This document shows, in pieces, positions 538 to 39,905 of a DNA stretch of 64,000 bases (position 1 is its first letter; each line of letters opens with the position of its first letter). The notes under the pieces are model-generated. The model did not search any database, had not been told where the DNA came from, and saw only the letters and a program-made list of their open reading frames with translations. Source of the stretch: a bacterium (GTDB lineage: Bacteria; UBA8248); assembly GCA_963692865.2 (NCBI GenBank), contig OY843592.1:3648001-3712000 (forward strand), read 5' to 3'. The translations under genes and the position numbers were made by a program.

Positions 538-735
538 GGGGCTGTTGAAAAACCTATCCCTCTCGCATCAACCACGTTTTACCCGTAGGGGCCGCATAGT
601 ATGCGGCCCCTACGAAACCATCGCGCCTCCCGCAGACCAGACATATATGTCTGACCTGCCAACCTCTGGGAAACGAAACGTAGGGGCGGACCTGTGTGTC
701 CGCCCGACCCCGGAACAGGGTTTTTCAACAGCCCC
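538..735. mobile_element. MITE-like element with perfect 17-bp TIRs and 5-bp TSD, carrying GTAG-type REP hairpins
   Basis: GGGGCTGTTGAAAAACC (538-554) / GGTTTTTCAACAGCCCC (719-735); TTGAC on both sides (533-537, 736-740); splits a family-4 REP arm; interior palindromes at 584-614, 636-658 and 680-705. Confidence 0.85.
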
Positions 736-920
736 TTGACGGAGGGACAAGAAAAAACAAAACCCCACCACCCGGCGGGGTGACATCGCCTTTTTTTACC
801 CCCCTGACAAGGGGGGGTAGGGGGGTTGGTTCCGACGAGGGCCTTTTCACCAACCCCGATGAATGAGCGTTTGCGACCGAAGAGGGGGAGTTTGCCGGTT
901 TGCAAGGGCATGAAGCCTTC

Positions 921-990
921 GTAGGGGCGGCTCGCGAGCCGCCCGCGCTCTTTCGAAATTGTCGTCATTCCGGCGCATGCCGGAATCCAG
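921..990. repeat. GTAG-type REP (921-944) plus CGTCATTCCGGC...GCCGGAATCCAG-type REP (963-990)
   Basis: GTAGGGGCGGCTCGCGAGCCGCCC hairpin, similar to 51178-51201; the second motif recurs at 28969-29113. Confidence 0.8.
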
Positions 991-1130
991 AATCCCGACC
1001 GAAGTAGGATTACGTTTTCAGGATGCTCTTTCCTTTCGGAACGGAATGCGGAATAATCGGCGAAACTACCCGATGAGCCGGTTCCTCCGGGGAGGGTCCG
1101 GCGGCGCGCCCGGAGTGCCAAGACCTGCTC

Positions 1131-3971: not shown

Positions 3972-4144
3972 TAAGACCGGGCTTGTAATAATACAGCAAT
4001 GAGAATCGTGGGGTGTTAATGAGGATGGCAGGAGTGTCTGCGTGGGGGCCGTCGTCCTTGGCGTTATGGATATGGCAAGGTGAGTTGTTCGGAGTTTGTC
4101 ATGCAGAGGAATAAAGAGTTGAACTTTTGCGAGGATAATCTGGC

Positions 4145-5046: not shown

Positions 5047-5087
5047 AAACTAGAACTACCCCCCAAAAGATGCTAGGTTCCAAGCTA

Positions 5088-5113
5088 GGGCGGACACACG
5101 GGTCCGCCCCTAC
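5088..5113 (-). repeat. GTAG-type REP in inverted orientation
   Basis: GGGCGGACACACGGGTCCGCCCCTAC is the reverse complement of the REP at 680-705 with one mismatch. Confidence 0.8.
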
Positions 5114-5151
5114 GACCCCTGCAATCCCTCCCTCCCCGATTGGGATTGACC

Positions 5152-5922: not shown

Positions 5923-5955
5923 GGTGGATGCCTCCTTGTCGTCCCGCCCGGAAGG

Positions 5956-6247
5956 GGGATTGGTGAAAAACCTCACAGGTAGAGCGTGTTAAATTTCACT
6001 CATCCCTTGAGGGGGTTGTTGCCCCCCTGACAGGGTAAAGGCAACCCCCTTGAAAGGGAAACCCCGCAAAGGCAACCCCCCCTACCCCCCCTTAACAGGG
6101 GGGCAAGAAAAAGCAAAGCCTCCTCTATCCGGCAGGGGATGTCGCCTTTTTATACCCCCCTGACAAGGGGGGGTAGGGGGGGGTTGCTTTTCCATTCGAG
6201 AGAAGCGTCTCCTCTGCCCCTGAATATGTGTCATTTATAACAACCCC
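5956..6247. mobile_element. Degenerate TIR element containing a family-4 REPIN
   Basis: GGGATTGGTGAAAAACC left end, truncated second left end at 6012 after TTGAG, REPIN 6072-6187, right end TTTATAACAACCCC at 6247. Confidence 0.6.
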
Positions 6248-9156: not shown

Positions 9157-9177
9157 TCTAAGGGGAGATAGAAAAAA

Positions 9178-9365
9178 CACTTCCCCCTTGAGGGGGTTGT
9201 TGGAAAAGCCTTCTGACAGGGTAAAGGCAACCCCCCCTACCCCCCCTTGTCAGGGGGGTATAAAAAGGCGACGGCCCCTCGCCGGGTAGACGGGTAGACG
9301 GGTAGAGAGGCTTTGGCTCTTTCTTGCCCCCCTGACAAGGGGGGGTTGGGGGGGTTGGTTTTCAG
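9178..9365. repeat. Left TIR plus family-4 REPIN inserted inside the mrp operon
   Basis: CCCCCTTGAG|GGGGTTGTTGGAAAAGCC (9193-9210) then inverted arms 9228-9357; same composite as 201-400. Confidence 0.8.
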
Positions 9366-9458
9366 GGCAGGAGAATGACGAGCAGGGCGGGTTTTCCATC
9401 GGGCATTCCCCTCGGGATGCCCGACCCCGCAAGAGCGGAGCAACAAGGAGACGTTAAC

Positions 9459-12413: not shown

Positions 12414-12520
12414 AGGGTTGTTGAAAAAGCCACCTGACAAAGGGGTTTGTAGGGGTCGCATACATGCGACCCGGCCTTTTTTCGCCGCCCAGCCATGGGC
12501 CGCATATATGCGGCCCCTAC
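12414..12520. repeat. Left TIR followed by a GTAG-type REPIN doublet
   Basis: AGGGTTGTTGAAAAAGCC (12414-12431); doublet 12449-12520 is the reverse-complement copy, including much of the spacer, of 25978-26048. Confidence 0.8.
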
Positions 12521-12671
12521 ACGAGCATTGACATCCCGACCAAGGGGGGATGGTTTCACAATCGTATGTCGATTGAAAAATCCATACCCCGTGATTGCGC
12601 ATTTGTTCCATCACGCCTAAAATCGGGCGCGTTTCTGCCGCCAATACCCATTCATACGGAGAAACGAACTC

Positions 12672-17660: not shown

Positions 17661-17763
17661 AACCCCCGCGCAGGGGGTTGTTGAAAAAGTCCTGATTTCG
17701 CGGTTTGGCGGGTGCGTAGCGGACAGGCCCTTTGGCCTGTCCGAGGCCGCGACCCGTCCCTAC
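17661..17763. repeat. Solo left TIR plus degenerate GTAGGGAC-type REP
   Basis: AACCCCC-GCGCA-GGGGGTTGTTGAAAAAGTCCTGATTTC, with the same post-TIR sequence as 34845 and 39302; GGACAGGCC...GGCCTGTCC hairpin. Confidence 0.7.
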
Positions 17764-18662
17764 GCCAACGCCTCATCCACGAAGCGCATGTCCACGGCCT
17801 CATCATACGAGACGCCCGTGGAGATCAGACCCCCGCTCAGGCACGCGGCCCGGAGCCACTCGAAGCTCTCCCGCGCAAGGTACGGCTCTTCGTTCCACAG
17901 GCCGAGGCTCTTGTAGCGCGCGACCGCCGCCGTCAGAAGATCGAAATCCATATCCCCGAACCAGGGCGCAACGAGCCGGGCGACGGCTTCGGCGTCGTTC
18001 TCCGCGAGCCAGCGTTCGGTCTTACGCATGGCGCGCGTCATGCCGAGGGCGGCTTCGGGCTGCTCCCGCAGGAACGAGTCCGACGCGTAGAACGCCGTGT
18101 AGGTCGTGAGGCCGCGCTCCGCCGCCTGATACCAGGCGTGGCCCGCGCCCTCCCGGATCAATTCCTCCGCGAATGGCTGGAACACCTGAATGACGTCCAC
18201 CTCGCCCGCGCGCAGGGCGTCGGCGTTATCGCCCATCGTCCGGTCCGGGATTCTGTTCAGCGCATCCGGCTCCAGCCCCGCCAGGCGCAGGTCGTGCTGG
18301 AGGCACATCCAGGGGGTGGGCACCTCGCTCACCGTGGCGATTTTGGGGCCCGCCAGATCGCTCATCCGGAAAGCCGGGTTCGGCTCGCGCCCGATGAGAA
18401 AAAACGGGTCGCGGCGAACGACCTCGCAGAACACCTTGAGGCCGCAGTCCGGGTCCCTGTCATAAGCCACCAGGACGCGCATGGGGCCGCCCCAGCTCAC
18501 CTGCGCCTCGCCGGAGGCGAGCAGACTCGCGTTCCGGGCGGGGTCGGGCGAGGTCTCCATGCGAACGTCGGCGCCCTCCTCCTCGTAGGCCCCCAGACCG
18601 GATGCGGCGTAGAACGGCGTGTAGAAAACGGCCCTGAAATTCTCGAGCAGCGTGATGCTCAC
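17760..18662 (-). CDS. NMT1/THI5/SsuA-like substrate-binding protein without an evident signal peptide
   Basis: ENFRAVFYTPFYAA, SWGGPMR, DVIQVFQPFA. Confidence 0.8.
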   Translation of the reverse strand: MSITLLENFRAVFYTPFYAASGLGAYEEEGADVRMETSPDPARNASLLASGEAQVSWGGPMRVLVAYDRDPDCGLKVFCEVVRRDPFFLIGREPNPAFRMSDLAGPKIATVSEVPTPWMCLQHDLRLAGLEPDALNRIPDRTMGDNADALRAGEVDVIQVFQPFAEELIREGAGHAWYQAAERGLTTYTAFYASDSFLREQPEAALGMTRAMRKTERWLAENDAEAVARLVAPWFGDMDFDLLTAAVARYKSLGLWNEEPYLARESFEWLRAACLSGGLISTGVSYDEAVDMRFVDEALA

Positions 18663-23878: not shown

Positions 23879-24862
23879 TTACATCGAGCCCCCGATCTCC
23901 TTGTAGAAGCGCTTGGCGCCTTCATGCAGCGGCACGCCGAGATGCATGCCCGCCTTCTTGGGGTCCCACCTTTTGTAGATCTTGTGGACGCCCGAGAGGA
24001 ACTTTTTCTCGTCTTTCGCGATTTTGAGAATCGAGTAGACGACGTCGGCGCTCATCTTGGTCGTGGTGAGCATTACGCCGAAGAGCCCCATCGAGTCTTT
24101 GGGCTTGGGGTTGCCCCTGTACATGCCGCCCGGAATCTGGCAGGGCGTGAAGCCGTTACCCGCCAGCATCTTCTTCACGTCATCGGACATGTCGAGGAAC
24201 ACGAGGTCACGGCCCAGGGCCGCCTGGATGCCCGCGCCGTTGGGGTCGCCCGAATTGTGGAAATAGTAATCGATCTGACGCGCTTTTATCGCGCGCGACA
24301 TGCCGTTCACACCCGCAAAGTTGAGCTTGTAGCCGCGCTCCCTGAGTTGCTTGTAGCTTGTCTTGTAGTGTTTGACGATCAGGCTCCCCACGTACTCCGT
24401 GCTGGTTCCCTTCTTGGCCACACCCACCTTCTGCGCCGTTTTCGACTTGATGATGTCGCCCCAGGTCTTGATGCCCCCGTCGTAAAGTTCCTTGGCGGCG
24501 TATTGGTGGTAGCAGGAAGGCCAGAAGCTGGCGATGCCGCGGAGGTTCTTGTACGATTTCTTGAAGGGAGTCCTGCCGGCCATCGCGGCGCCTGCGAAGT
24601 TCGAGAAGGTATAACCGAAATCCGCGCCTCCGCCGCCCACGCGCGCCGGGTTCGCCCGGCCGCCGCCGGGAACCACGCTGAGGATGACCTTTTTCTGCTT
24701 CCGGTTGACGATCTCCGTGAGACCGGCGCCCAGCCTGCCCATCGTGCCGCCCAGGCTGCCGACCGCGACGTCGTGTTTCGCGGGCGCGGCGTAGGCGTCG
24801 CCCACCGTCAGAAACGGCAGGCTCAGGGCCAGAATTGCAAACATCATGACGATTCTCTTCAT
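23879..24862 (-). CDS. TAXI family TRAP solute-binding protein
   Basis: Signal peptide, GSLGGT, VPGGGRAN, VPLHEGAKRFYKEIG; AAGGAG RBS before ATG 24862. Confidence 0.88.
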   Translation of the reverse strand: MKRIVMMFAILALSLPFLTVGDAYAAPAKHDVAVGSLGGTMGRLGAGLTEIVNRKQKKVILSVVPGGGRANPARVGGGGADFGYTFSNFAGAAMAGRTPFKKSYKNLRGIASFWPSCYHQYAAKELYDGGIKTWGDIIKSKTAQKVGVAKKGTSTEYVGSLIVKHYKTSYKQLRERGYKLNFAGVNGMSRAIKARQIDYYFHNSGDPNGAGIQAALGRDLVFLDMSDDVKKMLAGNGFTPCQIPGGMYRGNPKPKDSMGLFGVMLTTTKMSADVVYSILKIAKDEKKFLSGVHKIYKRWDPKKAGMHLGVPLHEGAKRFYKEIGGSM

Positions 24863-25180
24863 TTTTACTCTCCTTGATGAAGTGAGGTAAGACTGCGGCA
24901 ACGTGAAACCAAAAAACCCCGCTCGCCGAGACGCATTCGAGTGATAACCAACCGCCTCGCCGCGTTCTCAACGAGCGCTCTTTTCTGTATGCTTGGGCGT
25001 GAATCTTACAGACGGAAGCGTTTCGCTGTCAACGAATCTCGGGAGTCCGGCGAGCGTTCTCGCGGCTCTGGAGTGAGGTTACGGGTTCTTCGCCGGAAAA
25101 GCGCTTGCGGTAGCTGTCTTGGGTGGCTGTCTTATTGATTGCGACGGCGATTGGATATCCGGCTCTGAGGAGGTTTTCGC

Positions 25181-25209
25181 TTGCGTGTGCGCCGCTCCGG
25201 TGTTAGCAT
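25181..25209 (+). promoter_or_regulatory. Putative sigma70 promoter for the cupin leader
   Basis: TTGCGT (25181-25186), 17-nt spacer, TG-n-TAGCAT (25201-25209). Confidence 0.55.
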
Positions 25210-25246
25210 TGGAATAATATATCCGCTGACAGCGTGCTGTCGGCTC

Positions 25247-25282
25247 AAGGGCCACTCTTCGGAGCGGCCTTTGCTTTTTTTT
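25247..25282 (+). terminator. Intrinsic terminator inside the 5' leader of the cupin gene
   Basis: AAGGGCCACTC-TTCG-GAGCGGCCTTT hairpin then a T8 run, ending ~20 nt before ATG 25302. Confidence 0.7.
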
Positions 25283-25301
25283 ACCTGAAAGGAGCCGCAA
25301 C

Positions 25302-25652
25302 ATGCCGTTTTACCGTTGGGACGAGATGAAGCGAAAGAACCTGGCGAAGCCGTCCGATTCCGAAGGCAGCATCATCATCGGCGAACACGTAACCCTCAAC
25401 CGCTCGGTGAGCCCGCCGGGCAAGCTGGCCCGCCCGCACACGCACGACTGCGAACAGCTCATCAACGTCGTCGAGGGCGCCGCCTGGTTCCGCGTGGGCG
25501 ATGAGGAGAAAACCGTCACGGCGGGCGACATCATCCACATCCCCGAGGGTACCGAGCACGAGTTCAAGAACGATGGCGATTCCGAGTTCATCTACCTCTC
25601 GTTCAAGAACAAATCGGAGGGCTGGCCCCCGCCGACCGCGACGATGGATTAG
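25302..25652 (+). CDS. Cupin domain protein
   Basis: PHTHDCEQ and GDIIHIPEGTEH cupin motifs; AAGGAG RBS. Confidence 0.88.
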   Translation: MPFYRWDEMKRKNLAKPSDSEGSIIIGEHVTLNRSVSPPGKLARPHTHDCEQLINVVEGAAWFRVGDEEKTVTAGDIIHIPEGTEHEFKNDGDSEFIYLSFKNKSEGWPPPTATMD

Positions 25653-25705
25653 TTTCTCGCTTTTAACCCCGCGTGAAGTTCTTCGGGGCCAAACCCGGCC
25701 GGGGA

Positions 25706-26174
25706 GGGGTTGTTGAAAAAACCTCGTCTGCAACCCCCGCAAACCGCCAACGCCTCTTTCCTCACCCTGAGTAGCCGCCGAAGGTCAAACGCGACTGAGA
25801 AGGGAGCGTTTGTATCGAAGGGCTTGCCCGAGTCTGTCGAGGGGAGCGCTCCCCTTTTTGGCCGGCAATCGCTCCCGCATTGGTCGCGATTGACCTTCGA
25901 TACGCGGCTTCGCCGCTACTCAGGATGAGGTGGTATGGCGCCCGGTTGTGCACAGGCAACCCCGTCTGCGGGCAAGTGTAGGGGCCGCATATATGCGGCC
26001 CACGCCGGGCGGCGAAAAAAGGCCGGGTCGCATGTATGCGACCCCTACACCCAACACCCCTTCGTCCCGCAGATCGCCAGAATGACGGTGGTTTTCTCGC
26101 ATTGAGGGATTTTTTTTACAGCCCCTTGAGGGGGAGTGGTTCAACCCCACCTCAAGAGCTTTTTCAACAACCCC
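25706..26174. mobile_element. TIR element with mosaic interior (family-3 REPIN + GTAG REPIN) and two stacked right ends
   Basis: GGGGTTGTTGAAAAAACC at 25706; TCACCCTGAGTAGC...GCTACTCAGGATGA 25762-25928; GTAG doublet 25978-26048; right ends at 26125 (followed by TTGAGGGGGAGTGG) and 26174. Confidence 0.75.
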
Positions 26175-27297
26175 CCTTGAGGCCCGCTTCCAACTCCTCG
26201 GGGTCGATGGGCAGCTTCACGGCCTGCTTCCGCTTGGCGGACAGGTCGCACGCCATGCAGAGCATGAGGTTCCGGTGCCCCTCCGCCCCCGTGGCGTGGG
26301 GCATGTCGACGCCCGTGTAGAGGTGCGAGAGCCAGGCGATGGACTCATCGCGCATCGGCCCCCAGAACTGGCCCCTGGACATGTCCCCCGCCGGGTAGCT
26401 TTCGAGCAGGTGCACGTGGCGCTCCTCCCCCCGGTGGGAGGCCAGCGGGTTCTCCGACGCCATGATGAAATCCGCATGGGTGTCGTCGATGGTGAGCGCG
26501 CCCTCGGTCCCCACCACGCTGATGGTGACGCCGTAGGTCGAGGCGGGCCAGATGGTGGGCATCCCCCAGTTGCACTCCATGCTCCAGATGGCGCCGTCCT
26601 CGAAGGTGAAGATGCTGAAGGTGGCGTCTTGTGTGCCGATGCCCGTCATCACGCGCGATATCGAGCGCGATACCACCTCGGCGGGCTTCTTCTCCGGCCC
26701 CATCACGAACAGCATCACGTCGAGCGCATGGGTGCCGGATATCACCATCGGCGTCAGCATCGAGCGGTCCTCGTTTTTCGACAGCCGCGTGATGCCGACC
26801 TGGCGGTTCAGCAGCGCGCGCGTCGTGGCCGAGGTGACCTCGCCCAGAACGCCCGATTGCACGTGCTCGCGCGCCGTGAGCCAGCGCCTCCTGAACCGCT
26901 GGGTGTAGCCCACGAGCAGCTCGGCGTCCGCCGCCTCCGCCGCCTCCACGATTTTCGCCGACTCCGCCACGCTCGTCGCCAGCGGTTTTTCGACCAGAAT
27001 CCGGTGGCCCCGCCCTATCGCCTCCCAAAGCGGCTCCGCGTGCCATTCCTCGTCTGTGGCGATGACGACGGCGTTGACCTCGGGGCGCCGGATGAGTTCG
27101 GCGAAATCGGTCGTGAAGAAATCGGCCCCGAACTCCCCGGCCATCGCCCTGCCCTTCTTCTCGTCGATGTCGCAACAGCCTAGCCACTCCGTTCCCGGGT
27201 ACTCCCTGGCGCAGCGCGCACGAATGCGGCCCACGCGACCGCAGCCGACCACGGCCAGGCCAATCGGATTCCTCTCGCCTCCCGAAACCGCCATCAT
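26164..27297 (-). CDS. Gfo/Idh/MocA family oxidoreductase
   Basis: VVGCGRVG Rossmann motif, LVEKPLA, GYTQRF, SGTHALD; stop codon lies inside a TIR. Confidence 0.9.
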   Translation of the reverse strand: MMAVSGGERNPIGLAVVGCGRVGRIRARCAREYPGTEWLGCCDIDEKKGRAMAGEFGADFFTTDFAELIRRPEVNAVVIATDEEWHAEPLWEAIGRGHRILVEKPLATSVAESAKIVEAAEAADAELLVGYTQRFRRRWLTAREHVQSGVLGEVTSATTRALLNRQVGITRLSKNEDRSMLTPMVISGTHALDVMLFVMGPEKKPAEVVSRSISRVMTGIGTQDATFSIFTFEDGAIWSMECNWGMPTIWPASTYGVTISVVGTEGALTIDDTHADFIMASENPLASHRGEERHVHLLESYPAGDMSRGQFWGPMRDESIAWLSHLYTGVDMPHATGAEGHRNLMLCMACDLSAKRKQAVKLPIDPEELEAGLKGGC

Positions 27298-27475
27298 CCT
27301 CTCCCGTGAAATCATCGAGACGCATAAGAAAGCGCCGTCGCCTCAAGCGACGCTGTCTGGATTCCCCTTCATAGCAGCTTCGGGGAATGGGCGCATCATT
27401 GGCCGCGTCTTTGCGCAGAGAGATTTTCGAACGATGGGAGGGACTACGCCTTCGCAAGAAACAGGAAATTACGCT

Positions 27476-27719
27476 GTAGGGACAGGCCCCCGTGCCTGTC
27501 CGGGAAGGGACAACCACAGGGGGTTGTCCCTACGAACAGCAAACCCTTTCGTCCCTACGAAGCTCTCCGAACCGAAGGTTGTCGTCACTCCGGCATCAGA
27601 ACCAACCTAATCGAGAGGGTTTGACGGAATCAAGGATTTCCGAAATGCCCTGTGTAGGGGTCGCATACATGCGACCCGCATGCCACGAACCGGTCGGGCC
27701 GCATGTATGCGGCCCCTAC
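27476..27719. repeat. Two GTAG-type REPIN doublets
   Basis: GTAGGGACAGGC...GTTGTCCCTAC 27476-27533 (cf. 39743-39823); GTAGGGGTCGCAT...GCGGCCCCTAC 27654-27719. Confidence 0.85.
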
Positions 27720-28837
27720 AAATCAAAATCCTCAGGCTTGACCGGCAGCGGAACCGCCCGCCCGGTTTTTGCCGAATGGTCCATCGCCAGGCACAGCATG
27801 AGGTTCTCGTGCGCCTCGCGCGCCGTGGTGTGCGGCGTGGGGACGCCCAGGTAAATTCTGTCGAACCACGAGCGCGTCTCCTCGCGCATGGGGCCCCAGA
27901 GCTGTTCGAACACAAGATCGCCCGGCGGGTAGCTGGTCAGGAAACTCACGTTGCGCTCCTGCTTCAGGCGCGCGGATTCGTGCGGCTCCGCCGTGGCGAA
28001 GACGATGTCGCGGTGCGTGTCGTCTATCGTGAGCACGCCCCCCGTGCCCACGATACCCAGTTCGAGCGAATAGACCTCCGCCGGCCAGACGCTCGGCAGC
28101 GCCCAGCTCACGTTCATGCTCCATATCGTCCCGTCCTCGTAGGTGACGATGGCGAAGGTGGAATCCTTCGTGAGGTAGGGCGCCATCGCCTTGTCCACCG
28201 AGCGCGCGTACACCTCGACGGGCCTGCGCCCCTCCAGGAGCCAGGAGCACAGATCGACGCTGTGCGTGCCGGAGATGACCATGGGGGTGAATTTCGTCGG
28301 GAATTCCGTCTTGGTGGAGTTCGCCACCGGGTTCATACGGTTCAGGAAGGCGCGGCCCGTGACGGATGAGACGTCGCCCAACTCGCCCGAGCGAATCTTC
28401 TCCTTCGCCACCAGAAAGCGGCGTCGGAACCGCTGCGTATAGCCCAGGACGGCGTCCGCGCCCGCCTCATCGACCGCGTGCGCGAGCCTCTCGGATACGC
28501 CTGCGTCCACCGCCAGGGGCTTTTCGATCAGCATCCGGTGGCCGCGCTCCACGCCGATGAGGATGGGTTCCAGCCGCTCGTTCGCATACGTGGCCAAAAC
28601 CGCGGCGTTCACCTCGTCTCGCTTCAGGAGTTCGCGGTAGTCGGTCGTGAAAAAATCGGCCTGAACGTCATCGGCGAGCTTTCGGCCCACTTTCTCGTCG
28701 ATGTCGCACAGCCCCAGCCACTCGACAGCCGCGTTTTGCCGCGCGAATTCCGCTCGGATGCGCCCGATCTTCCCGCATCCCACCACCGCGAGGCCTATAG
28801 GCTTTCTCGTCTCGTTCAATATGTTCATGAGTTTCAC
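27716..28837 (-). CDS. Gfo/Idh/MocA family oxidoreductase (tandem paralog; start may be ATG 28828)
   Basis: VVGCGKIGRIRA, LIEKPLA, GYTQRFRRR, TPMVISGTH shared with 26164-27297. Confidence 0.9.
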   Translation of the reverse strand: MKLMNILNETRKPIGLAVVGCGKIGRIRAEFARQNAAVEWLGLCDIDEKVGRKLADDVQADFFTTDYRELLKRDEVNAAVLATYANERLEPILIGVERGHRMLIEKPLAVDAGVSERLAHAVDEAGADAVLGYTQRFRRRFLVAKEKIRSGELGDVSSVTGRAFLNRMNPVANSTKTEFPTKFTPMVISGTHSVDLCSWLLEGRRPVEVYARSVDKAMAPYLTKDSTFAIVTYEDGTIWSMNVSWALPSVWPAEVYSLELGIVGTGGVLTIDDTHRDIVFATAEPHESARLKQERNVSFLTSYPPGDLVFEQLWGPMREETRSWFDRIYLGVPTPHTTAREAHENLMLCLAMDHSAKTGRAVPLPVKPEDFDL

Positions 28838-28968
28838 CTTGAGCAGAGCGTCAATTCAAAACCGGCGCATCTTCCCACCCGGCCATTAGCGGCGCAAGCC
28901 GGGGTCCGGTTCAAGCCGGGACGTGATAGATAGTGACGCCGATGCCTCCGCCCGGTATCCGGTTTTTG

Positions 28969-29113
28969 GCCGTCATTCCGGCGAATGCCGGAATCCAGAG
29001 CGGATGAGACGGCCACGTTACGGCGTTCCATTCCCCACTCGTCGTCAGGAAACTGGAAGAAAAGCAAGAAAAAGACGAAAACCCTGGATTCCGGCATTCG
29101 CCGGAATGACGGC
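28969..29113. repeat. Family-2 REPIN with perfect 30-bp inverted arms
   Basis: GCCGTCATTCCGGCGAATGCCGGAATCCAG (28969-28998) / CTGGATTCCGGCATTCGCCGGAATGACGGC (29084-29113). Confidence 0.88.
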
Positions 29114-29135
29114 GGTGATCGATTCCGATCGACGA

Positions 29136-29331
29136 GGACCTGTTGAAAAACCCCCGCATGCGACCCCCGCAAACCGCCAACGCCTCTCCCCTCACCCTGA
29201 GTAGCCGCCAAAGGCGGCGTATCGAAGGGCGAGGGAGAGTCGAACGCTCGCGTCGGGGTGAGAGGAAATCCTTCGATACGCGGCTTCGCCGCTACTCAGG
29301 ATGAAGCAGAGAGGACTTTTTCAGCAACCCG
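29136..29331. mobile_element. TIR element carrying a family-3 REPIN
   Basis: GGACCTGTTGAAAAACC / GGACTTTTTCAGCAACCCG; left ~80 bp shared with the 25706 element; REPIN 29192-29304. Confidence 0.72.
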
Positions 29332-29455
29332 GTACGAGAGGCCGTAACTCCTGCAGCCGGTTCCGGCGAGCAACCATGATGATGACGGGAAGCGCCGACC
29401 TGGCGAGGTTCTGCTGGTATTCGAGGCCCTGATCGACAGTGAGGAAGGCGTCGGA
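29321..29455 (-). pseudogene. Fragment of a DUF5615/PIN-like toxin
   Basis: In frame after the DUF433 stop: SDAFLTVDQGLEYQQNLARSALPVIIMVARRNRLQELRPLVPGC*; no start codon or N-terminal half; ends in a TIR. Confidence 0.7.
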
Positions 29456-29638
29456 TTAGCGTTTGAGCGCTTCGAGCGCCTGCTCACGCGACACCGTCGG
29501 GAAGTCTTCCAGAAAATCGTCGAGCCTGTCGCCCGCTTCGAGATGCTCCATCAGGGTGCGCACGGGAACCCTGGCGCCTGCGAATACGGGCGTCCCTCCG
29601 AGGATTTCCGGGTTTCTCTCGATAAGCATATCGGACAT
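29456..29638 (-). CDS. DUF433 family antitoxin (probably C-terminally shortened)
   Basis: IERNPEILGGTPVFAGARVPVRTLMEHLEAGDRLDDFLEDFPTV; AAGGAG RBS. Confidence 0.85.
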   Translation of the reverse strand: MSDMLIERNPEILGGTPVFAGARVPVRTLMEHLEAGDRLDDFLEDFPTVSREQALEALKR

Positions 29639-29850
29639 CTCTCACTCCTTGAGCGCGGCGCATCAGAGAGAATCAAATGGCGCTTGCGGATTCTATTGCT
29701 TACCAAACCTCCTCCCGGCACAACTGGCGCCAAAGAACGGCATCGCGGTGCAAGCCGGGGCTTCGAAGCCCGCCGCGGTTCCAAAATTCCGCGTTTCATC
29801 GGAGAATGGGCCGTTCCCCCGAAACCCGTAACCCCGAAAGGAGTGACCCC

Positions 29851-30495
29851 GTGTCCCGCGTACCCATGCTCGAATCAGGCGCCGACGACCCGGTCGTGAA
29901 CCACCTCTTCGACCACGCGAGCGTTCTGTTGAACCGGATCCCCAACGCCTGGCGCGTGATGGCGAACCAGCCCTACATCACGAAATTCATGCTGCCACTC
30001 ACCTCCTCGCTCCTGCGCCAGGGCCTTGGTTCGGCCCTCGACACCAGGACGAAAGAACTCGCCATCATCAACACCAGCCGTCTCAACGACTGCGCCTACT
30101 GACTGGCGCACAACACGCCGGTTGGTCAATCGGTCGGAATCTCGGAAGAAGATATCACCGCCATCGGCAAGGGCGACTACGGCCCCTTCACCGAAAAGGA
30201 GCGCGTCGTCCTGCTCTGGGCGGAGCACGTGACGCTCAACACGGCCAGGGAGCGGGACGACATATTCCAAGAGGTCAAGCGGCATTTCACCGACGCGGAG
30301 ATCGTGGAGCTCACCATGGTGATCACCTATTTCAACATGAGGAACAAGTTCAACGACGCGCTGGCGATTCCCATCGAGGCGCAAGAGGAGATCGACAGGA
30401 ACAAGATACGCCGGAAGAATCCAGATGACCTCAAGGCCTATCTCGAAGCCCTGCTCGCCGACTGGCCGGACGAATACCCCGAGGCGGGAAACTGA
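29851..30495 (+). CDS. AhpD/carboxymuconolactone decarboxylase family protein with in-frame UGA, probable selenoprotein (CxxU)
   Basis: GTG start after AAGGAG; LDTRTKELAIINTSRLNDCAY-TGA(30100-30102)-LAHN...FTEKERVVLLWAEHVT...HFTDAEIVELTMVITYFNMRNKFNDAL is continuous in one frame; SECIS-like hairpin follows. Confidence 0.85.
30117..30134 (+). promoter_or_regulatory. Putative bacterial SECIS element
   Basis: GCCGGTT-GGTC-AATCGGT stem-loop with a G-initiated apical loop 21 nt after the UGA. Confidence 0.65.
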
Positions 30496-30575
30496 GCCAA
30501 ACATCGCTTATAGCGATAGAAACCTTTATCTGCTACAAAATGGAGAATTACACGGGCCAGTTCGAAGGACGGACC

Positions 30576-30791
30576 ATGAAACTTCATTATTATCCCGAAA
30601 CCGACAGCCTTTATATTGAGTTCAGAACCGAACCGGGAGCGGAGGCGCGTGAGGTTTCAGACGGGCTCAATGTGGATATCGCCGCCGATGGCGGGGTGGT
30701 CGGCTTCGACATCGACCATGCGTCGCGGCGTATCGACCTCTCTACGCTGGAGACCGAGGCGCTGCCCCTGCGCTCCTTAAAGGCCGTTTGA
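30576..30791 (+). CDS. DUF2283 family protein (orphan antitoxin-like)
   Basis: MKLHYYPETDSLYIEF...GLNVDIAADGGVVGFDIDHAS. Confidence 0.85.
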   Translation: MKLHYYPETDSLYIEFRTEPGAEAREVSDGLNVDIAADGGVVGFDIDHASRRIDLSTLETEALPLRSLKAV

Positions 30792-30880
30792 TCCATAACA
30801 CGCAAGTCGTAGACTCCGGAAACATTGATTCATGAAAAAACCCTCCTTGCCAGATGAGTTCCTCTAAGCGGGAAGCTGAT

Positions 30881-32227
30881 ATGGCGAAAACCCTCATCAA
30901 AAACGCAAGCATCGTCTCGATGGACCCCGAGGTCGGGGAGATCGAGGGTGGCGGCGTCCTGATCGAGGACGGGCTGATCGCCGAGGTGGGAGAAAACCTC
31001 TCTGCGCCGGACGCCGAAACCATCGACGCCGGCGGCATGATCCTCCTGCCCGGCCTCATCAACGCCCACATGCACACCTGGCAGACCGCGCTTCGGGGCC
31101 TGGGCGGCGACTGGGGCGGGCGCAGCTATTTCGAGATCGCGCACGAGACGCTCGCCCCGCGCTACCGGCCCGAGGACATATATATCGCGACCCTCGTGGG
31201 CGCGTGGGCGCAGATGGACGCAGGAACCACGACGCTGTTCGACTGGTGCCACAACAACCCCACGCCCGAGCACACCGACGCAGGGATAGACGCCCTGGAG
31301 GAATCCGGCATCCGCGCCCTTTTCGGGCACGGAACGCCCAAGCCGAAGCCCAGGGAGGGCGAGCCGCACTATTCGCAAATCCCGCATCCCGAAGGCGAGA
31401 TCAGGCGGCTGCGGACGGGCCGCCTGGCTTCCGATGAGGCCCGCGTCACCCTGGCGATGGCCATTCTGGGGGCCGACTACTCCCCTCTCGAAGTGGCGCT
31501 CCACGACATGCGCCTGGCGCGCGAATACGGGCTGTTGTCGAGCGCGCACATCTGGGGCGACGCGGGCAGGAAGGTGCAGGGCGGCTACCACACTCTGGCC
31601 AGAGAGGGCGTTCTCGGCCCCGACCACAACCTGGTGCACTGCAACTACGTGGACGATGAGGAGCTTAAAGTCATCATCGACTCGGGCGCATCCATCACGG
31701 CCACCCCATCGGCCGAGATGCAGACGAACCGGGGCGAGGCCGTCTGCGGGCGCGTGAGCGCGCTCGGCGGCAGGCCGTCCATCGGCGTGGACCTCGAAAC
31801 CTACGTAAGCGGGAACATGCTCCACGCGGTGCGGCACGCTTTGCAGGTCCAGCGCATTTTCGACAACCGCCGCCTGGACGAGAACACCTGCCGCGCGCCC
31901 GCTCTCTCCTTCTCGGCGCGCGACGCCCTCGCGTGGGCCACCATCAACAACGCGCACGCGCTGGACATGGCGGACAGAATCGGCTCGGTCACGCCCGGCA
32001 AGCAGGCCGACTTCATCCTGATCCGAAAAGACGGCCTCGCCGTGACGCCCGCAGGCGACGCCGCCCGCGCCGTCGTCTTCTACGCGGAGCGCTCGGACGT
32101 GGACACCGTATTCATCGGCGGCGAGAAGGTGAAGGCGGGCGGTGAGCTGCTCATAGATTCAGAAAAGATTAACCGGGCGAAGGAGCGGCTCGCTGCGTCC
32201 GCGCGGTGGATTCGGGGCTCCGCCTGA
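30881..32227 (+). CDS. Amidohydrolase family protein (SsnA/AtzA-like)
   Basis: PGLINAHMH, GTTTLFD, LVHCN, IGVD, ATINNAHAL, GSVTPGKQAD. Confidence 0.9.
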   Translation: MAKTLIKNASIVSMDPEVGEIEGGGVLIEDGLIAEVGENLSAPDAETIDAGGMILLPGLINAHMHTWQTALRGLGGDWGGRSYFEIAHETLAPRYRPEDIYIATLVGAWAQMDAGTTTLFDWCHNNPTPEHTDAGIDALEESGIRALFGHGTPKPKPREGEPHYSQIPHPEGEIRRLRTGRLASDEARVTLAMAILGADYSPLEVALHDMRLAREYGLLSSAHIWGDAGRKVQGGYHTLAREGVLGPDHNLVHCNYVDDEELKVIIDSGASITATPSAEMQTNRGEAVCGRVSALGGRPSIGVDLETYVSGNMLHAVRHALQVQRIFDNRRLDENTCRAPALSFSARDALAWATINNAHALDMADRIGSVTPGKQADFILIRKDGLAVTPAGDAARAVVFYAERSDVDTVFIGGEKVKAGGELLIDSEKINRAKERLAASARWIRGSA

Positions 32228-32301
32228 GGCGGAGAGTAGCGTCATTCTGGCGTCATAACCGATAGATGAGGAATTGCGCCTCCGGCGCAGGGGTCGCATA
32301 G

Positions 32302-32752
32302 GGGGTCGTTGAAAAAATCCTCATTTCATGGTTCGGAGAATGGAGCCGACTGGGGAGGGAGGAAAAACACTCACCCGTGCAGAACGCCAATCAACCACTC
32401 CCCCCTTGAGGGGGAGTCAGCAAGACGAGGGCCAAGCCCGAAGTCGCGCTGGTGGGGGGAGCTTTTTTTGTGGCACGTCCCCCTGCCGGGTAGAAGGGGC
32501 TTTGCTTTTTCTTGCCCCCCTGACAAAGGGGGGTTGTCTTTACCCTGTCAGGGGTGCTTTTCCAATTCTGGAATTACCCCCCCCACCGGTTCACTTGCGG
32601 ACTTCGTCCTTAGTTCACCGACTCCCCCTCAAGGGGGGAGTGGTTCTTGCTCTTTCATCGGTTGCCGATGACCCTCAGGGGGATTCATTTCATGAGCGTA
32701 TGTCGATTGAGAAATTTATTTTCCTGTTTCGGGGGACTCTTTCAACAACCCT
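32302..32752. mobile_element. TIR element inserted into a GTAG-type REP, containing a family-5 REPIN with a nested family-4 fragment
   Basis: GGGGTCGTTGAAAAAATCC / GGACTCTTTCAACAACCCT; flanks GGGGTCGCATA and GTATGCGGCCCC rejoin into a REP; REPIN 32393-32645. Confidence 0.75.
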
Positions 32753-32794
32753 GTATGCGGCCCCGATGGAGCAACGGGGCGCTCGAAATCCCCC

Positions 32795-33052
32795 TCACCG
32801 CCGATACGCCTCCCGTCGATGGGCGACGTGGATGACCAGCACAACGAGGGCGTCGTCCTGCACTTCGTAGACCACGCGATGGTCGCCGATGCGAAGGCGC
32901 CGCAAACCTCGCAAATCTCCCTTGAGCGCGCTGCCCAGAAAAGGATTTTCCGCCAGCCGATCGATGGCCTCGACGACCCGCACGCGATCCGCCTTTGCAA
33001 GGCGTCTCAGTTCCCTGACTGCGCTGCGTTTAATCCGTATCGAGAAGTTCAC
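32795..33052 (-). CDS. relE: RelE/ParE family toxin
   Basis: IKRSAVRELRRL...LAENPF...LKGDLRGLRRLRIGDHRVVYEV...VAHRREAYR. Confidence 0.88.
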   Translation of the reverse strand: MNFSIRIKRSAVRELRRLAKADRVRVVEAIDRLAENPFLGSALKGDLRGLRRLRIGDHRVVYEVQDDALVVLVIHVAHRREAYRR

Positions 33053-34824: not shown

Positions 34825-34844
34825 GCGTAGAGCCCTCTGTTTGC

Positions 34845-35117
34845 GGGGTGGTTGAAAAAGCCCTGATTTCTAGATTTGTCGTATGTAACCGACCGACGAG
34901 AGAGAAAAACCACTCCGCCCTTGGGGCTCGGGCCGATCCACTCTCCCTTTGGTCGGGATGTAAATACTCATGTAGGGGTCGCATAGTATGCGACCCGCTT
35001 TGTAAAGACGAAAAGGCGGGGCCGCATGATATGTCAGACATATATGTCTGACCTACAAAAACCGCCCCTTTCTGATTATGCCAAACCCTCGTTCATCAGG
35101 TCTTTTTCAACAACCCC
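34845..35117. mobile_element. TIR element with near-perfect 5-bp TSD carrying a hybrid GTAG REPIN
   Basis: GGGGTGGTTGAAAAAGCC / GGTCTTTTTCAACAACCCC; flanks TTTGC (34840-34844) and TTTGT (35118-35122); REPIN 34972-35056. Confidence 0.8.
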
Positions 35118-35157
35118 TTTGTTCTGTGAATTGGGCGTTCGGGCGCGGCGCTTCGCC

Positions 35158-36033: not shown

Positions 36034-36075
36034 TGGTTCATCCTCCTGAACGGCGTCCGGGAAGAAAGCCTATCC

Positions 36076-36960: not shown

Positions 36961-36972
36961 TTTCCCTCCTCC

Positions 36973-38058
36973 TCAAGCGCCATACCGTCGTATGGCCTCC
37001 TCAGAAAATTCCATCCCGTGGCCGGGGACGTCGGGAACCGCCATGCAGCCGTTTGCTACTGCGAATTCCCGCGTAAGCGTCTCTGCAGGCAGCATCTCCA
37101 CATACTCCACCATATAGCCGCTCGGCGTCGCGGCGAGGAGGCTCACGGAAACCTCCTGGAGGAGATGCGCGCACAGCGAGAGATTGTAGGCCTCCGCCAG
37201 ATGAGCCGCTTTTCGAAACTCCGTCACGCCCCCGCAGCGGCCCACGTCCGGCTGGAGATACGCCGCCGCCCTCCTCTCGCATATCTCCCGAAAGCCCCAG
37301 CGCATGTAGGCGTTTTCACCCGCGGCGATGGGCACGGGACTCCTCTCGGCCACTTCCGCCAGATCATCCACCGAATCGGCGAGCACGGGCTCCTCGAACC
37401 AGCGCACGTCGTAATCGGCGAGCATGGCGGCCACCTCGAGCGCCTCTCGGGGGCTGTACTTCTGGTTGGCGTCGGCGAACAGGACGACCGACTCGCCCAC
37501 CTCGTCTCTCAAGAGGCGGACCCGCTCCTCATCCCGGTCCGTCCCCAGCTTGAGCTTGTACGCGCCGATTCCCTTCTCCATGAAGCCCATACACTCATCC
37601 ACCATCTCTGCGTCGGTGAAGGTGAGCCAGCCCCCGCTGCCGTAGACGGGAATCTCGTTCCTGAATCCGCCCAGTATCCGGGCAAGCGGCAAACCCGCCG
37701 CCCTGGCGAGCGCGTCCCAGCAGGCGGTGTCTATTGCGGAAAGCGCCTGCACGCCCAGCCCGCCGCGCATCCTCGGTTTGTTCGGTCCCCACAGACGCAT
37801 CCAGAGCGCCTCGGGCGCCAGGGCGTCCTGCCCCACCGCCAGGGGAGCCAACTCTTTTTCGATGTAGGGAACGAGCGTCGTTGAAGTCTCCCCGCCCAGT
37901 CCCATCACGAAGCCGCAGCCCGTCGGTCCGTTTTCGGTGTGGAGAAAGACCACGAGGTAATCGAGCTCCGATTTCGTGCTGTTCGCGCTTCCTATCGCGC
38001 GGGCGAGGGGAACCTTGAGCGATTTCGCCTCTACGCCGATGATCTTCAGTTCAGACAC
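36973..38058 (-). CDS. Mandelate racemase/muconate lactonizing enzyme family protein
   Basis: SAIDTACWD, YKLKLG, DANQ, WFEEP, GEN, QPDV, PGHG. Confidence 0.9.
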   Translation of the reverse strand: MSELKIIGVEAKSLKVPLARAIGSANSTKSELDYLVVFLHTENGPTGCGFVMGLGGETSTTLVPYIEKELAPLAVGQDALAPEALWMRLWGPNKPRMRGGLGVQALSAIDTACWDALARAAGLPLARILGGFRNEIPVYGSGGWLTFTDAEMVDECMGFMEKGIGAYKLKLGTDRDEERVRLLRDEVGESVVLFADANQKYSPREALEVAAMLADYDVRWFEEPVLADSVDDLAEVAERSPVPIAAGENAYMRWGFREICERRAAAYLQPDVGRCGGVTEFRKAAHLAEAYNLSLCAHLLQEVSVSLLAATPSGYMVEYVEMLPAETLTREFAVANGCMAVPDVPGHGMEFSEEAIRRYGA

Positions 38059-38094
38059 GCTTCACACTCCGCTAAATCTCACGCTTTCATACGG

Positions 38095-38140
38095 CAAAAC
38101 AAAGGCTGCGGAGGCTCGACATACGCCCCCGCAGCCTTTT
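38095..38140 (-). terminator. Intrinsic terminator after the substrate-binding protein gene
   Basis: AAAGGCTGCGG...CCGCAGCCTTT hairpin followed on the minus strand by GTTTTG. Confidence 0.6.
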
Positions 38141-38159
38141 AGGCAACGAATCGAAAAAC

Positions 38160-39170
38160 CTAGTTCATCTTCATGCTGGCCAGCGCCTTCTCGAGCGGGC
38201 CTCTCTCGATGCCCTCGCCACCGGCGAAATTCGGCAGGCGGCGAATCTTGCCGCGGCCCTTCTGCACCTTGGCCGTCGCGTTGAGCGCGTTGATGATGCG
38301 CGGCGTGATTTTATACAAAGGCCGCACCACGTCGATGGAGCGCCTGGCGATGGAGTAGTCTACCTTGCGGCCCTTCGAGATCAGCCATTTGTGATAGACC
38401 TTGGCGAACTTGTCGGGGTCTTTCTTCCACAGGTTCGCGGATTTGAGATAGGCGCGCAGATATTTCGTCACGCCTTCGGGGTTGCTCTTGAGCGTCCTGG
38501 GATTCGCGAGCTCGATGAAGATCATGGCCGGCGGATTGTCGTACTTGCAGTAATCCACGATGGGACGGGCCCATTTCTTGTCCGTCAGGCGGAACGACGT
38601 GGGCGCGCCGATGACCATCGCCTGAACCACCTTGGCCCGGAAGGCGGAGAGGCGCTCCGCCGTCGTGGTGTTCATGATCTTGATGTCCTTGGGCTTCATG
38701 CCGAATGCGGGCAGGATGCCGTTGTCCAGCACGAAGTGGGTGGACGTGCCCTTCTTCTCGGCCATGGTCTTACCCTTCAAATCGGCCACCGTCTTGATCG
38801 GAGAATCGGGACGCACCCATATCGAGATGGATTTACACCAGGAGGAGCTCGCGGAGATCATCACGAGCCCCGCCTTCTTGGCCACGCCGTCCACGTAGGG
38901 CCGCGTAGCGCCGTGGCCCACGTCGAGACTGCGCGAGAGCAGCGCCTCGATGACGAGCTTGCCCTGCGGGAAGACCTTCACGCTCCAATTGCCTTTTCCG
39001 AATTCCTCGTCGAAATAACCCATCCCCATGGCGACCGCCGTGAAGGAGCCGAACGTCTGGCGGTGCATGCCGATGCGGAACTTGGCCGCCTCGGCGTCCG
39101 TCGCCTGGAAGCCGACCGGCGCGAGGCTCAACGCGAGGACCAGACACAAAAATCCGAACCACTTTCTCAT
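38160..39170 (-). CDS. SsuA/TauA-like ABC substrate-binding protein
   Basis: Signal peptide after a GGAGAGG RBS; SPIKTVADLKGKT...KGTSTH. Confidence 0.82.
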   Translation of the reverse strand: MRKWFGFLCLVLALSLAPVGFQATDAEAAKFRIGMHRQTFGSFTAVAMGMGYFDEEFGKGNWSVKVFPQGKLVIEALLSRSLDVGHGATRPYVDGVAKKAGLVMISASSSWCKSISIWVRPDSPIKTVADLKGKTMAEKKGTSTHFVLDNGILPAFGMKPKDIKIMNTTTAERLSAFRAKVVQAMVIGAPTSFRLTDKKWARPIVDYCKYDNPPAMIFIELANPRTLKSNPEGVTKYLRAYLKSANLWKKDPDKFAKVYHKWLISKGRKVDYSIARRSIDVVRPLYKITPRIINALNATAKVQKGRGKIRRLPNFAGGEGIERGPLEKALASMKMN

Positions 39171-39301
39171 CTTGTTTCTCCTCTCCAAAGATAAAGATGG
39201 ACAGCTTGCCTCACGAAAGCGTGAACGACTTTTCTGAACCGGATAGGCGAAGTATGACACAAGCGGGGTTTCATTGCATCCGGCAAAATGCGCCCCTGCC
39301 C

Positions 39302-39905
39302 GGGGTTGTTGGAAAAGCCCTGATTTCGTGATTTTGGGTGTTGCCGACCCAGGAGAGAGGTGACTTCATTCCACCTTTGCAAAGCGCCAACCAACCACTC
39401 CCCCCTTGAGGGGGAGTCGACGAGGTAAGGGCGTAAGCCCGCAAGCGAGTCGGTGGGGGGAGCTTTTATTTTAGAATCGTCTCCCCACCGAATCGGCCTA
39501 CGCCCAAGGGCTTGGCCTCTTCGTCTGGCTTTCCCCTCGAGAAGCCAGACCCTCAAGGGGGGAGTGGACCCAAAACTCCTGAAAGGTTTTGCGGTATTGT
39601 AGGGGTCGCATATATGCGACCCGTGTTTTGCAGACGAAAAGGCAGGGCCGCATGTATGCGGCCCCTACAATTGAAACGACAATGCCGCCGGAATGACGGC
39701 GGTGGTCGGTTCCGACCGAAGAGGGAGGAACCACCACCTACCGTAGGGACAGGCCTCCGTGCCTGTCCTTACGAAATGACAACCACGGAGGGCAGGACAA
39801 CCCCGAGGAGGGGTTGTCCCTACGAAACACGAAACCATCGCGCCTACGCGCACCACGTGAACCTCCATGCCGACCAACGCGCAAACCGGCTTTTCCAACA
39901 ACCCC
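39302..39905. mobile_element. 604-bp TIR element with perfect 18-bp TIRs and a multi-family REP mosaic
   Basis: GGGGTTGTTGGAAAAGCC / GGCTTTTCCAACAACCCC; flanks TGCCC / TACCC; interior has family-5 REPIN 39395-39567, GTAG doublets 39599-39668 and 39743-39823, and half of a family-2 motif near 39686. Confidence 0.85.

Follow-up and report, generated by a model that had tools for sequence, protein, structure and literature searches.

Transposable elements of the miniature inverted-repeat type (MITEs) that derive from an insertion sequence (IS) and are mobilized in trans are known from bacteria and include Correia/NEMIS, Nezha, and RUP (PMC3733652), as well as MITEPsy1, which is paired with ISPsy2 (PMC3189936). 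Here, we analyze a 64,000-nucleotide stretch of bacterial DNA (the window; positions 3,648,001 to 3,712,000 of contig OY843592.1, assembly GCA_963692865.2, GTDB lineage Bacteria; UBA8248), in which a preliminary description, made from the letters alone, had noticed a family of noncoding, end-bounded elements filled with repetitive extragenic palindromes (REPs) and their doublets (REPINs). These elements very probably constitute an IS1182-derived MITE family with REPIN-like cores, mobilized in trans, the interiors of which have been diversified by re-pairing, nesting, REP changes, and turnover. Like other IS-derived MITEs, they are short, noncoding, strongly folding, and present in high copy, share their inverted repeats with an IS, are flanked by a duplication of fixed length, and are polymorphic in their presence. 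They differ in that the partner is of the IS1182 family, only a 19-bp repeat is common to MITE and IS, about 10 alternative arms adjoin this repeat, and the core is a doublet of GTAG-headed REPs. MITEAba12 is reportedly a further example of an IS-derived MITE. In the literature searched (supplements apart), no IS1182 MITE family with these features and no REPs inside MITEs are described.

MITEs and REPs or REPINs are usually regarded as distinct classes, each served by enzymes of its own, and the prevailing view is that REPINs require a dedicated tyrosine transposase and are maintained by vertical descent. To our knowledge, REPINs have not been described with inverted repeats plus target duplications. 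GTAG-tagged REPs are presented in a published account (PMC3733652), and the palindromes studied here resemble the REP/REPIN class in their GTAG heads, their length of 20-30 bp, their arrangement in inverted doublets with a ~22-bp spacer, their division into many families, their occurrence as free copies and in clusters, and the presence of a gene resembling those for REP-associated tyrosine transposases (RAYTs) with an adjoining REP. The difference is that at least half of the main families here lie between DDE-type inverted repeats and are amplified with them, and that the RAYT-like protein scores under its cut-off.

Insertion of ISs into REPs or palindromic units is documented for IS1397/ISKpn1, ISPsy8, IS621, and ISPpu9/10, and the five families listed in that source do not include IS1182 (PMC1525189). 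Like the ISs presented there, the elements described here target extragenic palindromes at their symmetry axis or loop, make a short duplication, and use repeats as hot spots. In the cases presented there, however, the IS sits inside a broken REP, whereas here intact REP doublets sit inside the transposon, and the palindromes targeted here are C-tract/G-tract pads of other repeats, not GTAG REPs. Within the IS1182 family itself, IS1272 of Staphylococcus aureus is reported to make new insertions into inverted-repeat, potential stem-loop targets of differing sequence and to replace the target inverted repeat without a duplication (PMC5678879). The family and the hairpin-type targets are common to IS1272, as portrayed there, and the elements described here, but the latter keep the palindrome arms on both flanks and duplicate 5 bp.

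Two further classes invite comparison. Tn3-derived miniature elements (TIMEs) are said to have an inverted repeat that starts with GGGG and a 5-bp duplication, and the Tn3 inverted repeat itself is ~38 bp long. The elements here have a 19-bp repeat and an IS1182-type partner, and a Tn3 origin, hinted at by the GGGG start and the 5-bp duplication, was rejected, no Tn3-family transposase (PF01526) being matched in the 97.4% complete genome. Bacterial interspersed mosaic elements (BIMEs) of Escherichia coli are mosaics of REP-type palindromes and a small set of other conserved motifs; we know of no description of BIMEs that end in inverted repeats of the transposase type, are flanked by a target duplication, or have an IS to match. 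The mosaic REP combinations are alike in the two cases, but the elements described here do have inverted repeats, duplications, and a matching IS. BIMEs are mentioned in PMC3733652 and PMC1525189.

End motif, target sites, and an IS1182-family partner

The window forms part of contig C1 of a 4.15-Mb genome (G000; 61% G+C, 8 contigs, 97.4% complete) and harbors 12 sites of the end motif GGGGYTGTTGRAAAA at ≤1 mismatch, where 0.01 are expected and 0/100 shuffles reached 12; these lie at the positions at which the motif had first been noticed. The whole genome contains 834 such sites at ≤1 mismatch and 1105 at ≤2 mismatches. When 833 sites are aligned, 19 nt prove conserved, namely GGGGYTGTTGAAAAA and then S, Y, C, C; the outer edge of this block is sharp at the first G, with a C-rich stretch immediately outside. 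Genome-wide, adjacent ends in +/- orientation have a median spacing of 253 bp (300/331 within 1 kb), whereas adjacent -/+ ends have a median spacing of 3175 bp (61/328 within 1 kb), a contrast which indicates that the motif bounds short elements as an inverted repeat. Pairing of the ends gives ~300-340 elements of 175-400 bp, with a length mode of 175-350 bp, and bracket-parsing resolves 338 pairs and 429 unpaired ends. The short elements consist of 70-640 bp of repeats and have no coding capacity.

The three 5-bp flanking duplications named in the preliminary description are all present (Table 1), and the excess over chance holds genome-wide: an exact 5-bp duplication surrounds 57 of the 300 pairs, whereas 1000 shuffled pairings gave 4.9 on average and never more than 14. 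Allowing one mismatch raises this number to 87/300, versus 12 in one shuffle. Duplications of 4 bp are found in 14 pairs and of 6 bp in three, and moving the element boundary by 1-3 bp leaves only 0-1 pairs with a duplication. The earlier impression, gained from the two best copies, that the two ends of a copy match each other and differ between copies does not extend to the genome pairs, in which no positive left-right association of the variable end positions is found (at position 5, left/right: CC 36, CT 72, TC 70, TT 84).

A search of end pairs 0.7-12 kb apart with matching 5-mers, together with a genome self-comparison, yielded a 1514-bp IS present in two copies, C1:1499149-1500662 (duplication TTGAG) and C1:1724374-1725887 (duplication CTCAA). 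At the DNA level, they agree in 99.6% of positions along an alignment of 1613 bp, part of which extends into shared flanks, and their reading frames are intact and identical. Both have the ends GGGGCTGTTGAAAAACCCC, perfect 19-bp inverted repeats that are the same as the MITE ends, and both encode a single 480-amino acid open reading frame (ORF) matching Pfam DUF772, DDE_Tnp_1_6, and DDE_Tnp_1. The transposase scores 345.5 bits against the NCBIfam model of the IS1182 family (NF033551, cut-off 270), and the next-best model, one for the IS5 family, gives 91.6 bits, under its cut-off of 140. The IS also fits the size range of the IS1182 family in ISfinder (~1.3-2 kb), members of which have a single ORF and terminal inverted repeats. 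With its 19-bp ends and 5-bp duplication, this resident IS bears out the likeness to IS1182 ends that the preliminary description had suggested.

Among 44 related loci in public genomes, both ends are recognizable in 38, which are 1510-1529 bp long except for one 1365-bp copy; in 17 of these 38, the 5-bp duplication is exact, and its sequences come from the same small set of 5-mers. In an alphaproteobacterial metagenome-assembled genome (L043; CAWHHV010000001.1), the transposase is 59% identical and the ends, GGGGCTGTTGAAAAAC / GGGGCTGTTGAAGAAT, are nearly the same (flanks CGGGT/CAGGT), and thus the ends are conserved well beyond the genus. The MITEs share with the IS only the inverted repeat; since they lack coding capacity and have this repeat in common with the IS, trans mobilization is the natural inference. 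The distribution across genomes is consistent with such a dependence, although the genomes are related and their agreement is not independent proof. The end motif occurs in 13 of 18 other genus genomes sampled and in 0/12 sampled outside the genus; the motif-free genus genomes have no transposase match (0/5), and seven near-closed genomes (1-4 contigs) with a transposase match harbor 5-33 matches each, with the motif in 5/5 of those scanned. Two fragmented motif-bearing assemblies are without a transposase match.

The IS and the MITEs have the same target preference, C-tract/5 bp/G-tract. At 57 reconstructed target sites, C is found in 33-50 of the 57 at six left positions and G in 30-48 at seven right positions, and the commonest target 5-mers are TTGAG/CTCAA (13 sites), GACAA/TTGTC (13), and TTCTC/GAGAA (7). 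Flank complementarity is 4.65/8, versus 2.15 at random sites; a target palindromy beyond composition was rejected, because shuffled partner flanks still give 4.12, so that the signal is mostly the generic C-tract/G-tract. One favored landing site, CACTCCCCCC-TTGAG-GGG..., forms the end of a repeat family in which the full-length copies encode a transposase of the IS110 type, and another, CCCTACCCCCCC-TTGTC-AGGGGGG, is the sub-terminal palindrome of a poly-C MITE subfamily. As these landing sites lie in palindrome loops of other repeats, the elements nest in one another: 38 pairs enclose other pairs, and 67 + 73 = 140 same-orientation neighbors lie within 120 bp, the inner end sitting on a pad inside the outer arm, as with 538-735 in 219-857.

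The repeats that supply these sites are themselves families. The IS110-family element is 1.66 kb long, encodes a 346-amino acid DEDD transposase, and is present in five full copies and one partial copy, including C1:11517-13174 (L003). Four of the five full copies have palindromic ends, CACTCCCCCCTTGAGGGTCGGGCTTCCC... / ...CCCTCAAGGGGGGAGTGA, with a loop (TTGAG/CTCAA) into which the IS1182-type MITEs have inserted most often, and miniature relatives of this element are found at window positions 32396-32642 and 39396-39566. The TTGTC/GACAA landing pad is provided by a poly-C/poly-G palindromic module, CAACCCCCCCTACCCCCCCTTGTCAGGGGGG ... CCCCCCTGACAAGGGGGGGTAGGGGGGGTTG (window 259-400, 6078-6180, and 9233-9352), which forms the core of one MITE subfamily. 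Another palindromic family of ~150-200 bp, with CGTCATTCCGGCG(N3-4)GCCGGAATCC at one boundary and the complement at the other, is found within MITEs as well as on its own, at window 955-1000, at C1:2840579-2841412, and in elements of relatives (L049, L051).

Arms, cores, and REPs of the elements

The description of the interiors as not homologous to one another does not hold in that form: on average, 95% of the bases of an interior recur in other elements, and local matches link 295 of the 297. A full-length relative is found for only 139/297, and clustering at 80% reciprocal coverage gives 158 clusters, of which 129 are singletons and the largest comprise 24, 21, 21, and 16 members. What separates the inverted repeat from the first GTAG, here termed the arm, falls into ~10 types, with 168 of 600 half-elements that lack a GTAG left unclassified. 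Arms adjoin the inverted repeat in 47/48, 27/28, 17/17, 20/22, and 14/15 cases for five types, and in lower proportions for two others (20/35 and 18/22). Preferred arm pairs define subfamilies, with arms 2+3 combined in 15 elements, 0+6 in nine, and 1+5 in nine; chimeric pairs include 0+4 (four elements) and 2+7 (four), and also 0+3 and 3+6. An origin of the arms as deletion remnants of the IS was considered and rejected, the ten common arms showing no match, by eye, to the sub-terminal sequence of the IS here or of 38 related copies, and an IS-like arm being found only in L052 and L054.

The usual core consists of two inverted GTAG-headed palindromes separated by a spacer of ~22 nt, which is the anatomy of a REPIN, and is otherwise another palindromic module. 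Within one arm frame, cores differ in that a REP head has been exchanged exactly at a fixed junction, the spacer has been inverted, or REPs have been added. The head swap falls between GTAGG and ATATCATGCG, where a left REP half-stem gives way to a complete other hairpin, TCAGACATATATGTCTGAC or TGACAACCCCTCCTCGGGGTTGTC... (e.g., C1:381308-381489 compared with 780720-780888 and 439562-439767), and the inter-REP spacer is found in both orientations. Each core variant occurs at several loci, and some recur four to five times within one arm frame.

A 193-bp composite illustrates how such combinations are propagated. It is found in eight full-length copies of at least 99% identity, representing seven independent loci and one copy on an alternative contig; the duplication is exact at six of the seven loci and has a single mismatch at the seventh, and the distal flanks differ. 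Among the matches listed from 22 other genus genomes searched, there is no full-length copy. Seven near-identical loci, each with its own duplication, indicate that composites are copied as units, and recently, in this lineage. The preliminary description had proposed a DDE transposase that spreads any short segment between two ends in trans; the IS1182 partner and the amplification of composites as units agree with the first part of this proposal, but the "any short segment" part is not supported, as the interiors come from a closed pool of repeat modules.

REPs are numerous in this genome. A scan returned 2041 GTAG-headed hairpins, some of them by chance, with at least nine sequence families of 19-308 heads each. 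The main family (GTAGGGGYCGCAT) has 308 heads, of which 151 (49%) lie inside end pairs, which cover 2.6% of the genome, and 247 (80%) lie within 200 bp of an end. In eight other GTAG-headed families, 36-88% of the heads lie within 200 bp of an end. Free REP doublets of ~70 bp, both single and clustered, have unique flanks directly at GTAG and CTAC. A 174-amino acid RAYT-like ORF at ~C1:17496-18020 (L069 1197-1721, minus strand) matches NF047646 under the cut-off of that model (E = 5.8e-18) and Pfam Y1_Tnp weakly (E = 0.016, or 26.7 bits with in-frame neighbors). One GGGACAGGTCGCGACCTGTCC REP lies just upstream of its start, and another is inserted in frame within the coding sequence. The REPs here may depend on an enzyme other than the IS1182-type transposase, and on these domain matches, a putative second layer in which a tyrosine transposase acts on the REPs is plausible.

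Elements of the window and their orthologous sites

At least eight bounded elements and three solo left ends (at 9193, 12414, and 17674) had been recognized in the window, and all are present (Table 1); four of the eight, however, have degenerate ends, with 1-2 or more mismatches (219-857, 5956-6247, 29136-29331, and 32302-32752), and no right end of 5956-6247 is found at ≤2 mismatches. As single-stranded DNA, the intact element 538-735 has a predicted fold of -57.9 kcal/mol (z = -11.1). No Rfam family reaches its gathering score in window positions 1-41000.

Table 1. IS1182-type elements, solo ends, and an empty target site in the window.
Feature	Position	Strand	Details
Degenerate outer MITE, poly-C/poly-G palindromic core	219..857	+	Hosts nested 538-735; ends GGAACTGTTGAAAAA and GGGGTTGGTGAAAAG, 2 mismatches each; flanks TTGAG/GATGA, no duplication; poly-C pads at 259, 395, 824
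Intact 198-bp MITE nested in landing pad of 219-857	538..735	+	Core with GTAG-headed REP hairpins, heads at 585, 613, 680; inverted repeats perfect; duplication TTGAC/TTGAC, exact
Decayed element, poly-C core	5956..6247	+	Left end GGGATTGGTGAAAAA; pads at 5997, 6078, 6180
Solo left end followed by poly-C/poly-G palindromic core, right end lost	9193..9370	+	
Solo left end with arm and REP doublet (REPIN-like), right end lost	12414..12530	+	Heads at 12449 (+) and 12520 (-)
Solo left end with arm and GTAG hairpin	17674..17770	+	
469-bp composite MITE with GTAGCSGCS palindrome module and REPIN	25706..26174	+	Outer ends perfect; no duplication; degenerate right end inside at 26111-26125
196-bp MITE of the arm-1/arm-5 subfamily (C1:3677136-3677331)	29136..29331	+	GTAGCSGCS...GTATCGAAGG palindromic core; ends with 2 mismatches each
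451-bp composite MITE	32302..32752	+	Holds miniature of CACTCCCCCCTTGAGGG-ended family and poly-C modules; ends degenerate
273-bp MITE with REPIN core, lineage-specific insertion	34845..35117	+	Duplication TTTGC/TTTGT; REP heads at 34972, 35056
Empty target site with one CTCAA, C-rich to its left and GCGCC to its right	36972..36976	+	MITE-occupied in relatives
604-bp composite MITE at old shared insertion site	39302..39905	+	Both ends GGGGTTGTTGGAAAA; duplication TGCCC/TACCC; interior with miniature of CACTCC-ended family, REPIN, and three further REP types

The preliminary description had proposed a comparison with related genomes, and there, orthologous sites that are empty and have the 5-mer only once do exist. 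The site of 34845-35117 is empty in 6/6 aligned relatives, each of which has the corresponding 5-mer once; in four it reads ATTGT, which agrees with the duplication in G000. Conversely, the CTCAA site at 36972-36976, empty here, holds a 175-bp REPIN-core element flanked by CTCAA/CTCAA in G013 and poly-C-core elements of 257-259 bp in G002, G012, and G016. G013 and G002 have the flanks, the duplication, and an unusual right-end variant in common, and their cores differ (REPIN versus poly-C). At the site of 39302-39905, the same unusual GG left-end variant is found in L049, L050, L052, and L054 and, more degenerate, in L051, and the interiors of the relatives are unrelated in content and length (318, 334, and ~211-232 bp versus 604 bp here); this site is empty in L055 and L058. 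Either the interior may have been replaced in place, or hot target sites may have been re-used after precise excision. A reading of the motif as a binding site or uptake sequence was rejected, given that the ends pair in inverted orientation, that duplications and empty sites occur, and that an IS has the same ends.

Within the assembly, contigs C2-C8 are alternative versions of C1 segments at 96-99% identity (e.g., C6:1-8339 versus window 24500-32834, 98%). Indels between these contigs and C1 fall in repeat regions, and no clean single-MITE insertion difference was found among them. In four public runs, the stretch is represented by short contigs that break at repeats, and among the joints listed there is no clean excision or empty-allele joint. 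Twenty other runs contain small shares of the stretch only and are thus uninformative about habitat. Repeat bins in these runs stand far above unique bins in summed depth, which is not a copy number. In the bin 28908-29458, which contains element 29136-29331, summed contig depth is several hundred times that of neighboring unique bins in all four runs, a sign that copies of the GTAGCSGCS...GTATCGAAGG module may be exceedingly numerous in those samples and may stem from several organisms.

Origin of interior diversity and alternative explanations

The proposed mechanism is as follows. The 480-amino acid IS1182-family DDE transposase would mobilize the MITEs in trans, as the common ends, duplication, target preference, and co-occurrence suggest, and would insert them into a 5-bp target with a C-tract on one side and a G-tract on the other, which corresponds to the loop of short palindromes in other repeat families, other MITE subfamilies, and MITE junctions. 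Each end consists of the inverted repeat and one of ~10 fixed arms, and the core is usually a REPIN-like doublet or else another palindromic module. Four sources would then feed interior diversity: the re-pairing of arms across a shared core, most simply by recombination; nested insertions; head swaps, spacer inversion, and the addition of REPs, probably by a REP-associated tyrosine transposase; and wholesale turnover of the interior at fixed orthologous sites. New composites would subsequently be copied by end-dependent transposition, with the result that a large share of the REPs in the genome would travel inside MITEs. A large part of the variety among interiors appears to come about once an element is in place, through REP swaps, spacer inversion, and turnover at orthologous sites, rather than through capture.

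Several observations weigh against this account. The arms are unlike the sub-terminal sequence of the IS, by eye, both in this genome and in the 38 related copies. An exact duplication is kept in only 19% of the pairs (29% with one mismatch allowed), and 429 ends are unpaired, so that much of the MITE family is old or rearranged. The redundancy of contigs C2-C8 indicates that the assembly mixes close strains, and repeat counts are therefore slightly inflated. Transposition was not directly observed, the run contigs having broken at repeats with no usable joint among those listed. With respect to the tyrosine-transposase layer, the RAYT-like protein scores 65.2 bits, under the curated NF047646 cut-off of 80, and the REPs beside its gene belong to a family other than that of the commonest MITE core. 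Finally, the commonest REPIN core was not found in six transposase-free genus genomes (five scanned for the motif, none with it). The core could thus be the MITE's own rather than part of a separate system, and the genomes, being related, are not independent witnesses.

This last point leads to an alternative in which the GTAG hairpins are intrinsic MITE sequence, the free REPINs are what remains of stripped MITEs, and no second layer of enzymes exists. Besides the absence of the commonest core from the six genomes without the IS, such a scheme would account for the closeness of the main REP family to the ends (80% of it no more than 200 bp away) and for the finding of only one RAYT-like gene, under cut-off and interrupted by a REP. 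We nevertheless regard it as unlikely. Of 25 free plus-strand heads of the main family on C1, 22 were inspected, and these free doublets have neither an arm nor an end remnant, unique DNA abutting directly at GTAG/CTAC. There are, moreover, at least nine GTAG-headed families, in which 36-74% of the heads lie within 200 bp of an end and many are thus free, and the precise head swaps at one junction in otherwise constant MITEs resemble site-specific single-strand events, not decay. The position of a REP just upstream of the RAYT-like gene is also the arrangement typical of such genes.

A second alternative, essentially the capture originally envisaged, holds that the transposase moves whatever lies between two ends, such that interiors are arbitrary and include REPs by chance. 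The 129/297 interiors without a full-length relative fit this idea, as do the many nested and solo ends that could re-pair and the composites of up to ~600 bp that keep near-matching duplications (e.g., 39302-39905). Arbitrary interiors, however, are not what is found, given that 95% of interior bases are common to other elements and that arms are fixed beside the inverted repeat and occur in preferred pairs. No convincing unique or gene cargo is found, moreover, among the 17 end pairs of greater length (700-12,000 bp) whose 5-mers match: the IS itself makes up two of these, most others carry common target 5-mers expected by chance, and the four with uncommon 5-mers that were opened comprise one MITE with an IS110 insertion, two repeat stacks, and one case of two MITEs with genes between them. 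On this evidence, generic capture is very unlikely. Passive accretion, in which old end-bounded insertions gather REPs in place and play no part in REP spread, finds some support in the two orthologous sites with conserved ends and wholly different interiors between species and in the ~2000 GTAG hairpins genome-wide, but is highly improbable in view of identical arm-REPIN-arm composites at seven independent loci with their own duplications, the recurrence of other core variants four to five times per arm frame, and the concentration of the main REP family, 49% of which falls in 2.6% of the genome.

The explanation we favor is a family of IS1182-derived MITEs with REPIN-like cores, whose interiors are diversified by the four sources named above. 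A bolder extension, which we put forward only tentatively, is that REPINs have become the standard core of DDE-mobilized MITEs in a piggyback pair, in which the hairpin may be required by the IS1182-type transposase, which also picks hairpin loops as targets, and the end-bounded frame would serve as a cassette site for the exchange of REP cores. If this is true, REPINs would gain a second, faster route of spread.

Every component of this system is of a known kind, namely IS-derived MITEs, the IS1182 family, GTAG-headed REPs and REPINs, insertion into palindromes, and nested repeats. What is not described in the literature searched, supplements apart, is an IS1182 MITE family this large, alternative arms on one inverted repeat, and REPIN doublets as a standard core, that is, REPs spread by a DDE transposase. 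One IS1182-type transposase appears to spread much of the REP population here, and its preference for palindromes of the C-tract/5 bp/G-tract type causes repeats to pile into one another. No effect on host physiology is shown; the system does account for the heavy intergenic repeat load and the assembly breaks in this uncultured genus. It also offers a setting in which hairpin-directed target choice can be studied in the little-studied IS1182 family and urges caution in studies of REPIN populations that assume spread by RAYTs only.

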